A stretch of 46,856 nucleotides of DNA from a phage, in sequence record PZ379178.1; one strand, given 5' to 3'. This document shows, one piece after another, positions 2,717 through 28,335 of the stretch. The notes under the pieces are model-generated. The model searched no databases, was not told where the DNA came from, and saw only the letters and a list, made by a program, of their open reading frames with translations. Position numbers and translations under genes: made by a program. The first letter of the stretch is position 1. Every line of letters begins with the position of its first letter.

Positions 2717-3136
2717 ATGAAAATCACAGACAAAGGTGATTACCTCGAGTTCTATGGCGGACCGGTGAAGTCATGCCCAAAGGAAGACGATGAACAAATC
2801 TTCTGCTCTGATTGGGTGAAATACAACTATCCGCAGATTGTTTACTGGCACACGATTAACGAAAATAAAAAGAGCATTGGTCAAGCAAGAAAAGACCAAG
2901 CCAAGGGGCTTCTCAAAGGTGTGTCAGACTGCTTATTTCTGATACCTGAGTCATTGCGTGGCGGTTATCCATTTGGCGCCATAGAGTTAAAGAGGGCTGG
3001 TAAAACGCAAGCAAGCCCAGTTAGCAATGAGCAAAAGTCATTCCTAAAAAGCGTAAGTGAATCAGGCGGTTTCGCAGCGGTGGCTTATGGAAGAGAGGGT
3101 TTTCTTGCGGCATTCGCAGAGATGATAAGAAAATAG
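2717..3136 (+). CDS. VRR-NUC-like PD-(D/E)XK nuclease
   Basis: 139 aa; GVSDCLFLIP ... FGAIELKRAGKTQ matches D...E-x-K nuclease core of VRR-NUC proteins; immediately follows helicase. Confidence 0.55.
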   Translation: MKITDKGDYLEFYGGPVKSCPKEDDEQIFCSDWVKYNYPQIVYWHTINENKKSIGQARKDQAKGLLKGVSDCLFLIPESLRGGYPFGAIELKRAGKTQASPVSNEQKSFLKSVSESGGFAAVAYGREGFLAAFAEMIRK

Positions 3137-6862: not shown

Positions 6863-6936
6863 GCTTATAATTTGCCACCGCCTAATGTATGATATTTGCA
6901 CTATGTATTGACAAATTAGGATTTAAAGGTGATCAC

Positions 6937-7152
6937 ATGAGGGAAGTAATTAACGCCGCCACGGCATCAACCGGCGGAGCCGCTGTAACTGGTGCCGCAA
7001 CTGGTCAAATGACTATAGCAATAATCAGCCTTGTGGCTCTTGTTGTTTTCGGGCTGTGGGGAGCATATTGGAAGTTTAAGGACAGTCAGGCAATCAGGAA
7101 GGCTCTAGAGTCGGGTGATTTAAAGACAGCTATCAATATTAGGAGTAAGTAA
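6937..7152 (+). CDS. Holin (putative)
   Basis: 72 aa with one strongly hydrophobic segment IAIISLVALVVFGLWGAYW and charged C-terminus; directly precedes endolysin; AAAGGTGA SD before ATG 6937. Confidence 0.5.
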   Translation: MREVINAATASTGGAAVTGAATGQMTIAIISLVALVVFGLWGAYWKFKDSQAIRKALESGDLKTAINIRSK

Positions 7153-25279: not shown

Positions 25280-25709
25280 AAATATTGGTGGGTTGGCTAC
25301 ATTTACGAATAGTATTGCTGATTGGATTGATAGAGCTGATGATAACTTCTCTGATATTGTTTCTGGCACTGTAATTAAGGCTGCTAACGCCATCGTTGAT
25401 TTATCGCCTGTTGATACTGGTAGGTTTAAGGCTAACTGGCAGATTACAGCGAACTCCCCAGCCGCTCAGTCTCTGAATGATTACGACAAAACAGGTGGAG
25501 ATACAAAAAGGTATCTGGCAAGGCAAGCTCGAGCTGTGGCTAATTCACCAGCGACAAAGGTTATCTACATAACTAACAGGCTTGATTACGCCTCTGACCT
25601 TGAGTATGGATCGTCACAACAAGCGCCAGCAGGTGTACTTGGTGTAGTCAATATCCGGCTTGGGCGTTACTTCGAAGAAGCCGTAGCTGAAGCAAGGAGT
25701 AAACGATAA
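25263..25709 (+). CDS. Neck/tail completion protein (putative)
   Basis: 148-aa ORF in connector region. Confidence 0.4.
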   Translation: MLPMARNIGGLATFTNSIADWIDRADDNFSDIVSGTVIKAANAIVDLSPVDTGRFKANWQITANSPAAQSLNDYDKTGGDTKRYLARQARAVANSPATKVIYITNRLDYASDLEYGSSQQAPAGVLGVVNIRLGRYFEEAVAEARSKR

Positions 25710-26107
25710 TGCAGTATGAATTATCTTTGGCGGCAAGGAGGTTTGTGACTGATTTGGTTAAAACGTTTCCAGTCAGGTATCCAATCTCCTATGAAAACGT
25801 AGCCTTTTCCCCTCCAAGAAATGGCGGCATGTGGCTGAAGTACGATTATACCGAGGCTGACACAGTAACCTATAGCTTGAGTCGCAAGTGTAAGTATTAT
25901 GTTGGCATGGTTCAGGTATCTGTCTTTTTCTCACCAGGTGATGGTGTTGATAGTGCGAGGAGAATTGCTAATCAATTGGCAGAATCAATGCTTGATGGTA
26001 CAATGCTTGACACAGGCTACATTTATGAGGGCGGAGTAGTTCACCCGGTAGTGAAGTCAAAATCTGGCTGGTTTATTCCAGTTCGTTTCTATGTTCGTCT
26101 TGACTAA
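25709..26107 (+). CDS. Tail terminator-like protein (putative)
   Basis: 132-aa ORF preceding major tail gene. Confidence 0.4.
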   Translation: MQYELSLAARRFVTDLVKTFPVRYPISYENVAFSPPRNGGMWLKYDYTEADTVTYSLSRKCKYYVGMVQVSVFFSPGDGVDSARRIANQLAESMLDGTMLDTGYIYEGGVVHPVVKSKSGWFIPVRFYVRLD

Positions 26108-26117
26108 AAGGTTGCAA

Positions 26118-26603
26118 ATGAAAGAGTTCTTAAATTCTCTTTACGATTATCGCGATGGTCAAATCTTTCATAAAGGAGGTTCAAAGCCATGTGGGTATGG
26201 AAAGCCTAACGGATACATTCAAACTTACGTCTCAAAGACTGGTAAGAAGTATGTTCACAGGATTATTTGGACAATGCATAATGGAGACATCCCAGAAGGC
26301 ATGCAAATTGACCATTTAAATGGCAATAGGAGCGACAACCGCATTGAGAATTTAAGGTGCGCATCAGTAACTGAAAATAGAAGAAATTCAGGAACGAAAT
26401 ATAGGTATCGTAGATTCCCTGGTGTTAATGGTGTAAACTACAATAAGCGCGATAATCTTTGGCATGCAATGATTTCTGATAATGGCGTAGCTAAGAGCCT
26501 TGGTCATTACAAGTCATTTGTTAGTGCATGTGAAGCTAGAATTATCGCAGAAGTAAATCTTGGATACCACGTAAATCACGCGATGCGTGATAGCGTATAT
26601 TAA
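26118..26603 (+). CDS. HNH homing endonuclease (HNH_3-like)
   Basis: MQIDHLNGNRSDNRIENLR motif typical of phage HNH endonucleases; inserted between tail terminator and major tail genes; start 26118 preferred over 26091. Confidence 0.55.
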   Translation: MKEFLNSLYDYRDGQIFHKGGSKPCGYGKPNGYIQTYVSKTGKKYVHRIIWTMHNGDIPEGMQIDHLNGNRSDNRIENLRCASVTENRRNSGTKYRYRRFPGVNGVNYNKRDNLWHAMISDNGVAKSLGHYKSFVSACEARIIAEVNLGYHVNHAMRDSVY

Positions 26604-26612
26604 CTTAACTCT

Positions 26613-27290
26613 TTGAATTGGAGGTGTATTATTGCCCATCTCAGCAATGGCACTCAGGTCTTCGTAGAAGGCACTAGGGGAGCTGCTATCGACGTAACCG
26701 CAATTTCCAACGCGGTTAATCCTGTTTTAACTTTGTCCAGCGTTGCAGATATTGCACGCGGTGACTACCTGTTGTTTACCAGCTCCGCTTCAACTCTGCT
26801 GGCTGATAAGCAAGTTCGCGTTACCGCAGTGTCTGGTTCAACCGTAACTGTTGAAGGTATTGACACCTCCAGCACCACCAAGTTCCCGGCCGGTTTAACT
26901 GGTGAAGTGGTTAAGATTCTTAGCTGGTTTGAGGTTCCTTGCGTTCAGGACGTATCCACTGACGGCGGCGAACAGCAGTTCGTTAACTTCCAGTGTTTAT
27001 CCGATGACCGTGAGCAACAGATTCCAACTTATAAATCTGCGGTAACTAATACCTACACTTTCGCGCACGAATACACCAACCCGATATATCCGATTCTGCG
27101 TAACTATGACGAAGCTGGTACTGTTGTTGCTATCCGTCTGTTCGTACCTCGCGCTAGTGAGATGCGTCTTCAGTCTGGCACTATCGCTTTCAACGACACG
27201 CCGAGCATTGGTGTTAACGAAATCGAAACGGTATCCATTGCGGTATCTATTCGCGGCAGGCTGAGTTCTGTAGCTTCTGAACTGGCATAA
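26613..27290 (+). CDS. Major tail protein (putative)
   Basis: 225 aa, position between connector genes and tail chaperones, followed by strong terminator; start may be ATG 26646. Confidence 0.55.
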   Translation: MNWRCIIAHLSNGTQVFVEGTRGAAIDVTAISNAVNPVLTLSSVADIARGDYLLFTSSASTLLADKQVRVTAVSGSTVTVEGIDTSSTTKFPAGLTGEVVKILSWFEVPCVQDVSTDGGEQQFVNFQCLSDDREQQIPTYKSAVTNTYTFAHEYTNPIYPILRNYDEAGTVVAIRLFVPRASEMRLQSGTIAFNDTPSIGVNEIETVSIAVSIRGRLSSVASELA

Positions 27291-27297
27291 AAATTAA

Positions 27298-27317
27298 CCC
27301 TCTTCGGAGGGTTTTTT
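27298..27317 (+). terminator. Rho-independent terminator after major tail gene
   Basis: CCCTC-TTCG-GAGGG followed by T6. Confidence 0.65.
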
Positions 27318-27398: not shown

Positions 27399-27647
27399 AT
27401 GAACAACGTTAAAAATATCATCAAACTTGCTGCTGCTCTTGGTGCTTTCTACCTGGCAATTCAGATTGTCAACCCAACTGGTGGCGCAACCGCTAACTCT
27501 GATGCAATAAAGTATGAACATGAATTTAATAGTGCATATTCTCATTGTGAAAAAGTAGCTGGCGATAAGACAAATCAGATTCTGCATTATGGTCGCGAGG
27601 TGTGCACCGAAGTTGCTCACAACATTGTAAAAAACGAATCAAAGTAA
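27399..27647 (+). CDS. Small protein with N-terminal signal/TM segment (moron-like)
   Basis: 82 aa; N-terminal IIKLAAALGAFYLAIQIV; own promoter box 27323; sits between major tail and chaperone genes. Confidence 0.45.
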   Translation: MNNVKNIIKLAAALGAFYLAIQIVNPTGGATANSDAIKYEHEFNSAYSHCEKVAGDKTNQILHYGREVCTEVAHNIVKNESK

Positions 27648-27682
27648 TATAATCATTCAACACAAACAAAGGAGATAACGAG

Positions 27683-27997
27683 ATGGCAAAATTTAAACTT
27701 TCACTTAAGGCGCTGCCTGACTTTAAACTTCCGGTTAAGTTTCAGTTAGCGAATGGTGAAGATGCAGAGGTGGTACTAACAGTTAAGCACAAGAAATCAT
27801 CTGAACTTCAGGAGATTCTTAATCGTGAAAACTTCAGCACTAAAGAATTGATTAACGAAATCTGCTCTGACTGGGATTTAGAAGAACCATTTAACGATGA
27901 GAACGTCGATGAGTTTGCAAACCTATTCCCAGGTGCAGTTCCATCATTGATGGATAGCTACATGAAAGCGCTGGCTGGGCAGCGAGTAAAAAACTAA
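27683..27997 (+). CDS. Tail assembly chaperone (gpG-like)
   Basis: 104-aa acidic ORF immediately upstream of tape measure region; slippery heptamer at its 3-prime end. Confidence 0.55.
   Translation: MAKFKLSLKALPDFKLPVKFQLANGEDAEVVLTVKHKKSSELQEILNRENFSTKELINEICSDWDLEEPFNDENVDEFANLFPGAVPSLMDSYMKALAGQRVKN
27988..27994 (+). other. -1 programmed ribosomal frameshift slippery site A_AAA_AAC
   Basis: Heptamer in phase with gpG-like frame 3 codons before its stop; -1 frame open from 27958 to 28311. Confidence 0.5.
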
Positions 27998-28311
27998 AAC
28001 GCGCAGTATACTTACAATACCAGTCACCACCAACGGATGCCGAACTCGAAGCTATCGGAATGAAACGTTCCGATTATGAAGGTGATGAGCCTGAAGAGTT
28101 ATACTTCGATGAAACAATGATGCAAAGCTGGGATGTGTACTGTGCCATGTCAACTCAATGGCGAGTAGGGGCTTGCGGTGCCACAGGCCTTGATTATAAT
28201 TGCCTTCCATTCTTGTTCAAAGTCTATAAAATAGATGATGACGAAATGGTACTTAACGACATCAGAATACTTGAGGCTAAAGCCTTAGATATGATGAACG
28301 CCAAGAAATAG
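27988..28311 (+). CDS. Tail assembly chaperone frameshift extension (gpGT-like, via -1 frameshift)
   Basis: -1 frame opens only 10 codons before slippery A_AAA_AAC (27988-27994) and runs to 28311, ending just before tape measure gene. Confidence 0.45.
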   Translation, partial: KKLKRAVYLQYQSPPTDAELEAIGMKRSDYEGDEPEELYFDETMMQSWDVYCAMSTQWRVGACGATGLDYNCLPFLFKVYKIDDDEMVLNDIRILEAKALDMMNAKK

Positions 28312-28335
28312 CCATCCTTCGGGGTGGCTTTTTTA
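28311..28335 (+). terminator. Terminator/attenuator hairpin before tape measure gene
   Basis: GCCATCC-TTC-GGGGTGGC (imperfect) followed by T6. Confidence 0.45.

Follow-up and report, generated by a model that had tools for sequence, protein, structure and literature searches.

The phage genome analyzed here carries, flanked by its major tail and tape measure genes, two open reading frames, of which the second overlaps the first in the -1 frame and has no good conserved start of its own. The question that this locus raises is how the second frame comes to be translated. An initial annotation of this DNA (sequence record PZ379178.1; the window is the whole stretch of 46,856 nucleotides that was analyzed) had proposed a programmed -1 frameshift, and our analysis leads to the same answer: we predict, with a probability of about 0.9, that the long product of the locus is a 209-aa fusion of the two halves, called G and T below, made by -1 ribosomal slippage on the heptamer A_AAA_AAC.

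At the DNA level the window is closest (93% identity) to the coliphages ES, AN_ECEAS, CY1, Rao1 and TR2/TR3, and because ES and CY1 are classed in the Drexlerviridae, Braunvirinae (the genus of CY1 being Christensenvirus), its source is a T1-like siphophage of this group, a coliphage. The gene order is major tail protein (PF08813), G (PF08748), T frame (PF08809) and tape measure (PF06791/PF09718), so that the chaperone pair is flanked by the major tail and tape measure genes, with one extra 82-aa ORF before G (Table 1). Both halves exceed the curated Pfam thresholds of the T1-type tape measure chaperone families. G matches PF08748 (Phage_TAC_4) over its full length (E=8.2e-33, 113.7 bits, cut-off 21.1), and the G protein of T1, which belongs to the same family, scores 128.6 bits; the T segment matches PF08809 (DUF1799) from T residue 22 (E=1.7e-14, 54.2 bits, cut-off 26). 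The 213 positions of phrog_17368 span both halves, G corresponding to positions 1-107 and the T segment to positions 109-211 (T E=6e-50), and the match to phrog_680 starts at T residue 9, which is 8 residues past the slip site and upstream of the first possible start codon of the second frame, ATG 28060. Searches of solved structures by sequence, and of NCBIfam, gave no meaningful matches.

Table 1. Features of the tail chaperone region and its flanks in the window.
Feature	Coordinates	Strand	Basis or remarks
Major tail (tail tube) protein gene	26613..27290	+	PF08813 E=2e-67; phrog_584
Terminator-like hairpin and T run after the major tail gene	27296..27313	+	intrinsic-terminator-like sequence
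Shine-Dalgarno sequence AAGGAG of G	27669..27674	+	read from sequence; anti-SD duplex -8.7 kcal/mol
G, short tail assembly (tape measure) chaperone, 104 aa, 11.8 kDa	27683..27997	+	normal translation; PF08748, phrog_569, phrog_17368
Overlap, 0 and -1 frames both open	27958..27997	+	-1 TAG 27955..27957; 0-frame TAA 27995..27997
Slippery heptamer A_AAA_AAC (gtA AAA AAC)	27988..27994	+	in X_XXY_YYZ phase: last base of GTA, then AAA, AAC
T segment, -1 frame, 105 codons and stop, begins LKRAVYLQYQSPPTDAELEAIG	27994..28311	+	PF08809, phrog_17368, phrog_680
TAA stop of G	27995..27997	+	directly 3' of heptamer; TAA in 43/43 relatives
9-bp hairpin enclosing ATG 28060	28054..28074	+	106-nt fold; -9.9 kcal/mol
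Terminator-like hairpin and T run between T stop and tape measure gene	28310..28329	+	intrinsic-terminator-like sequence
Tape measure protein gene, 993 aa	28349..31330	+	PF06791 E=6e-48; PF09718 E=4e-16; phrog_24

The anti-SD duplex of G is the strongest among the starts tested, that of the tape measure gene reaching -6.4 kcal/mol, and the true start of the major tail gene is probably slightly 3' of the listed TTG. The T1 record has terminators annotated at both places equivalent to the two terminator-like hairpins of Table 1; partial termination at these may help to set the stoichiometry of tail tube, chaperone and tape measure proteins. The 82-aa ORF (27399..27647, + strand), which lies between the terminator of the major tail gene and G, has a hydrophobic N-terminus and belongs to phrog_22925 (function unknown), with no Pfam or NCBIfam match. 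Because T1 has no gene in this place and RobRod40 has a different ORF there, of 128 aa, it looks like a variable 'moron' slot within the tail operon. The ES record calls the homologue of this ORF 'exonuclease', a label that looks wrong. Further upstream, a 132-aa ORF (25709..26107) and the major tail gene are separated by an HNH endonuclease ORF (26091..26603, + strand; PF13392, E=2e-23), which probably represents a mobile homing endonuclease. RobRod40 carries an HNH gene at the equivalent spot, right after its tail terminator gene; ES and CY1 lack the ORF, and it is just past this point that they become similar to the window.

Within the chaperone pair, the -1 frame is closed by a TAG and is then open from 27958, 10 codons 5' of the heptamer, to a stop at 28309..28311, as the initial annotation had described, and the overlap of the two frames is the only place where a -1 shift can be productive. 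G ends in CAG CGA GTA AAA AAC TAA, and the heptamer that had been noticed there is indeed in the phase required for slippage. It had also been placed three codons before the stop, which holds for its first base, the last base of the third codon before TAA; its last codon abuts the TAA, with zero codons between. By chance, the 12 codon positions of the overlap would be expected to hold 0.037 in-phase X_XXY_YYZ heptamers and 0.013 of the type X_XXA_AAN, and the + strand of the 46.9-kb window contains four copies of AAAAAAC. The slip site by itself is therefore only mildly unlikely; judged by the alignments described below, it is its conservation in relatives, and not the improbability of the motif alone, that places it beyond chance.

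Other in-phase heptamers near ORF ends were checked throughout the window. T_TTA_AAG (7119..7125, + strand) in the holin gene (6889..7152) was rejected as a recoding site: its -1 frame is closed by a TAG 7 codons on, and the endolysin gene is provided with a Shine-Dalgarno sequence of its own and an overlapping ATGA start, so that this motif, a strong one in E. coli, is taken as a chance occurrence. AAAAAAC at 27629 was likewise rejected, its -1 extension being one codon. The in-phase heptamer G_GGT_TTT at 3097 has a -1 extension of 33 codons.

In the mechanism that we propose, most ribosomes translating G would end at its TAA and release the 104-aa protein. A small fraction would slip back by one nucleotide on A_AAA_AAC, with tRNA-Lys re-pairing from AAA to AAA and tRNA-Asn from AAC to AAA, and would resume at CTA (Leu) and continue in the -1 frame to 28311. 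The predicted GT protein consists of G residues 1-104 followed by T (209 aa, 23.95 kDa; join 27683..27994, 27994..28311), with the junction ...QRVKN/LKRAVYLQYQ... (the slash marking the shift). One tryptic peptide, AVYLQYQSPPTDAELEAIGMK, is encoded in the -1 frame at 28003..28065, mostly 5' of ATG 28060, and can arise only via a frameshift because no start codon precedes it in that frame. On the model of the G/GT pair of phage lambda, the G sequence common to both products would serve to coat the tape measure protein, recruitment of the major tail protein would fall to the T part (DUF1799), and a low frequency of slippage would fix a high G:GT ratio.

When the locus is compared with its relatives, the arrangement is found to be widespread. 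A tblastn search with the conceptual fusion as query matched 1134 phage records. For 913 of these, at least 80% of the query is accounted for at one place, typically by two neighboring pieces read in different frames. Loci were taken from viral contigs (38) and from the annotated genomes of TLS, T1, Ec_L1, Sparks, Trimon, RobRod40, CY1, ES, phiES15, Dina and VarioGold, and the comparison set comprised 43 distinct Drexlerviridae G-T regions whose G proteins are 33-99% identical to that of the window. The heptamer and the -1 offset recur in relatives down to about 45% identity, and also in a Variovorax phage and a Cronobacter prophage. The sequence GTA/GCA AAA AAC TAA is present in 36 of the 43 distinct Drexlerviridae sequences, T1 having GCA AAA AAC TAA, and outside this set the Variovorax phage VarioGold has GCA AAA AAC TAA and the Cronobacter phage phiES15 GAA AAA AAC TAA. 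In the Ralstonia phage Dina (L049) the site is G_GGA_AAC TGA, again with the stop abutting.

The heptamer lies within the overlap and, in the 43 relatives, is kept at positions where synonymous change would be free. Counting back from the stop, which is TAA at the identical position throughout the 43 relatives, codon -3 invariably ends in A (GTA in 34, GCA in 9), although the amino acid differs; codon -2 is AAA in 38 and AAG in five; codon -1 is AAC in 36 and AAT in none. The six codons before the site (Ala, Leu, Ala, Gly, Gln, Arg), by comparison, have 3-5 synonymous variants apiece. The seven exceptions retain a slippery Lys tetramer (A_AAG or A_AAA_G) in place of the heptamer: GCA AAG GTC TAA in the phiKP26/Jk06/e4-1c group (L031, L038-L041) and GCA AAA GTT TAA in Klebsiella weberviruses (L004, L007). 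In these alignments the slip site itself evolves, with its position fixed to the last three codons of G.

Three records differ in another way, their G or T frames being broken: Enterobacter phage N5822 (L005, MW032452), L043 and L044. N5822 and L043 have five A at the slip site instead of six, and the N5822 record is a 78-kb 'circular' sequence, compared with family genomes of about 50 kb. These broken frames look like homopolymer or assembly errors and not natural variants. N5822, for which tblastn gives a single-frame fusion, was also considered as a natural in-frame GT and rejected, broken frames of this kind being typical of assembly errors.

The pattern of substitution indicates where the second frame begins to be read as protein. 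Across 41 distinct sequences, the entropy upstream of the site is highest at the third codon position of the 0 frame (1.57 bits versus 0.79 and 0.58), and downstream it is highest at the third position of the -1 frame (1.29 bits versus 0.32 and 0.61); the wobble variation moves from the one frame to the other within the 9-nt bin that contains the heptamer. Nearly all sequences encode L-K-R-A-V-Y-L in the -1 frame right behind the heptamer, and the changes in this stretch are synonymous only (Arg CGC/CGA/CGG/AGG, Ala GCA/GCG/GCT, Val GTA/GTG/GTT/GTC and Leu TTA/CTA/CTC/CTG). Purifying selection on the -1 frame thus starts exactly at the heptamer, and the 22 residues preceding ATG 28060 are kept as protein; selection of this kind could act on them only if the heptamer is where ribosomes enter the -1 frame.

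How efficient the shift would be depends on whether the heptamer is assisted. A stimulated -1 signal of the dnaX/IS3 type would have an RNA structure (hairpin or pseudoknot) 5-9 nt 3' of the site, an SD-like element on its 5' side, or both; no such signal was found in the window. Folds of the 66 nt (-4.7 kcal/mol, z=+1.26) and of the 50-nt segment (-3.3 kcal/mol, z=0.28) 3' of the site gave no downstream stimulator, and a consensus fold of 15 Braunvirinae-type sequences contains 0 pairs. An upstream SD-like element is not conserved either, the candidate GGG being a freely varying Gly codon (GGG/GGT/GGC/GGA). In contrast, phages of the T1/TLS/Tempevirinae type have a conserved 11-bp hairpin that starts 7 nt after the heptamer (GGCGGUUU..CUG/CAG..AAACCGCC; -14 to -19 kcal/mol, z -3 to -4.5; for example L006:720..749, L052:1895..1924 and about 15 other T1/TLS-like loci). 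Compensatory changes supporting its pairing were not found, because the paired bases hardly vary; this hairpin is likely a frameshift stimulator. It is absent from the Braunvirinae-type phages, the window included.

In E. coli, A_AAA_AAC is shift-prone above background but weak, far below A_AAA_AAG (PMC4066793), and insertion sequences of the IS1 and IS3 families use it without an established stimulator (PMC4066793; PMC5009743). Slippage in the window's clade probably relies on the heptamer by itself and, given that no downstream hairpin or other stimulatory structure is present, is probably inefficient; for the same reason we would place it at 1% or less to a few percent. With a weak heptamer and neither a downstream structure nor a conserved SD-like element, the efficiency could be very low. 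A low rate would suit a chaperone system, if lambda is a guide: there a short form and a rarer long form are made at about 30:1, and the ratio matters for assembly (PMC5009743).

The same fusion could be produced by a slip of one tRNA instead of two, with tRNA-Asn in the P site and TAA in an empty A site (or with tRNA-Lys one codon earlier); termination would be slow, and the stop would provide the pause in place of an RNA structure. The TAA directly behind the heptamer, its constancy among the relatives, the stop that also abuts the site of Dina and the missing downstream hairpin in the window's clade are all consistent with this. However, the conservation of TAA need not mean a role in slippage, since the conserved Leu-Lys of the -1 frame (CTA AAR) forces it, and the slipping codon and the stop are separated by a codon in the A_AAG GTC TAA variant. 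The variant sites A_AAG and A_AAA_G are single-Lys tetramers and not heptamers, A_AAG being the best tetramer in E. coli (PMC4066793), and it follows from them that one-tRNA slippage would suffice in this chaperone family. Set against this is the retention of the full X_XXY_YYZ motif, including the wobble A of codon -3, which points to two-tRNA slippage, and on balance we consider the one-tRNA route unlikely for the window. It is more doubtful still that, in the Braunvirinae branch, a bare and weak A_AAA_AAC with the abutting TAA as a pause drives frameshifting, with release factor and tRNA slippage competing to determine the G:GT ratio; if this were true, the ratio could respond to host termination efficiency or growth state.

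A different possibility is that no fusion is needed and that the ORF 28060..28311 is translated alone, as an independent gene for a protein of 83 aa (9.7 kDa). The ATG is present and the ORF was listed; it has a CDS of its own in the records of RobRod40, CY1 ('TfmS') and ES ('minor tail protein'), the TLS record has a separate tfmB beside its tfmS join, and the DUF1799 match begins near this codon. The features of the start itself argue against this. In the -1 frame no ATG/GTG/TTG lies between 27958 and ATG 28060; the 22 codons 5' of this ATG are conserved as protein, with synonymous-only changes, and the profiles phrog_680 and phrog_17368 reach upstream of it. The region upstream of the ATG has no Shine-Dalgarno sequence (-0.2 kcal/mol against the anti-SD), and the ATG lies inside the 9-bp hairpin of Table 1, which would hinder internal initiation. 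In T1/TLS-like phages the codon (T codon 23) is Leu, and their first Met is codon 41, inside DUF1799. For want of a Shine-Dalgarno sequence, with the hairpin and with Leu at this position in T1/TLS-like phages, independent initiation at ATG 28060 is neither conserved nor favored, and we regard a separate gene as very improbable. The hairpin was also considered as a frameshift stimulator and rejected because it lies about 60 nt 3' of the slip site, too far; L001 and L003, the closest relatives, share its sequence unchanged, the other relatives do not form it, and it is thus not conserved. Together with the conserved site and the frame-switch of selection, the poor internal start bears out the earlier proposal that a -1 frameshift at A_AAA_AAC joins the chaperone ORFs.

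The two frames could in principle also be joined before translation, if RNA polymerase added an extra A in the A6 run (27988..27993) so that a minority of mRNAs carried both halves in one frame. Appreciable slippage of the bacterial enzyme requires runs of roughly 8-9 residues or longer. Homopolymer runs are known sites of transcriptional slippage (PMC5009743) and a run is present here, but it is short, at six A, and relatives retain the arrangement with three or four (GCA AAG GTC, GCA AAA GTT, G_GGA_AAC), which together make this route most unlikely. What is conserved, moreover, is the phase of the site relative to the codons, a feature relevant to ribosomes and not to polymerase, and we infer that the slippage is ribosomal. 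A coincidence of heptamer and open frame, or one gene split by a sequencing error, is hardly credible: an in-phase heptamer in the overlap is not impossible by chance, and the records N5822, L043 and L044 do have broken frames at G-T, but the same -1 offset, stop and site in 43 distinct sequences, the presence of both halves in over 900 phage records and the switch of frame-specific selection at the site refute it.

The site and frames in the window are real, and the ribosomal frameshift that we predict from them is ordinary and already documented in related phages. The TLS RefSeq record gives tfmS as a two-piece join beside tfmA, the record of Klebsiella phage Sparks annotates a join as 'frameshift product', and the frameshift is mentioned in the genome papers of Citrobacter phage Stevie and coliphage U136B. 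It changes no concept, and the main value of the present analysis is for annotation: in ES, CY1, Rao1, TR1-3 and RobRod40 the downstream ORF is given as a small gene of its own, and in public genomes this ORF is labeled 'TfmS', 'minor tail protein' or 'hypothetical' and starts at the non-conserved ATG. Judging from the comparative data, the nearest public genomes mis-annotate the second half, and the product under selection is the 209-aa fusion joined at 27994. Correct models of the long and short isoforms are of some practical use, since the tail assembly chaperone core is reported to trigger the bacterial STAND/Avs immune sensor Avs17 (bioRxiv 10.64898/2026.01.04.697583; also Nature 2026). 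What goes beyond current knowledge is this mis-annotation of the relatives and the lack, in the window's clade, of the hairpin found in T1/TLS; the difference between clades amounts to a small natural experiment on how the G:GT ratio is tuned.

Among known systems, the G/GT pair of lambda has the same overall design: its two ORFs overlap and lie between genes V (major tail) and H (tape measure), and the -1 shift takes place late in the first ORF, on a heptamer of the type X_XXA_AAN and with involvement of tRNA-Lys. According to work cited in PMC5009743, the tail assembly chaperone frameshift is conserved in long-tailed phages (Xu, Hendrix and Duda 2004), and lambda G and GT are both absent from virions (Levin, Hendrix and Casjens 1993; Xu, Hendrix and Duda 2004, 2013, 2014). 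The details differ. The lambda site, G_GGA_AAG, lies five codons before the stop, whereas that of the window abuts it; lambda G has 140 aa and its T part 144 aa, compared with 104 and 105 aa; and lambda G and T belong to PF06894 and PF06223, to neither of which a Pfam search of the window proteins gave a match. Alignment with hhalign gave probabilities of 0.07% and 0.7% for homology of the window's G and T to lambda G and T (alignments A3, A4). With no detectable similarity to the lambda proteins, the functional roles of G and T are assigned from synteny and Pfam naming. The window system therefore appears to work like lambda G/GT without being a member of the lambda G/T sequence families, and the synteny, the span of phrog_17368 over both halves and the conserved site and offset accord with the G/GT strategy that the initial annotation had recognized.

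A second likeness is to IS1 insA-insB', which uses the A_AAA_AAC heptamer on the same host translation machinery at low efficiency and with no established stimulator, and in this way sets a low ratio of fusion to short product (PMC4066793). Here the resemblance is one of mechanism only, IS1 encoding a transposase and not a tail assembly factor, and the proteins are unrelated. With tfmA/tfmS of phage TLS (NC_009540), on the other hand, both the proteins and the site are shared. The join annotated in TLS is missing from the records of the nearest database relatives of the window; T codon 23 is Met in the window (ATG 28060) and Leu in TLS and T1; and the hairpin 7 nt past the heptamer is a feature of the T1/TLS-like phages that the Braunvirinae lack. 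The window is 53% identical to TLS in the G part and 67% in the T part, and in both phages the pair consists of PF08748 and PF08809 proteins of about 104 and 105 aa, encoded between the major tail and tape measure genes and joined at the same site, GTA AAA AAC TAA.
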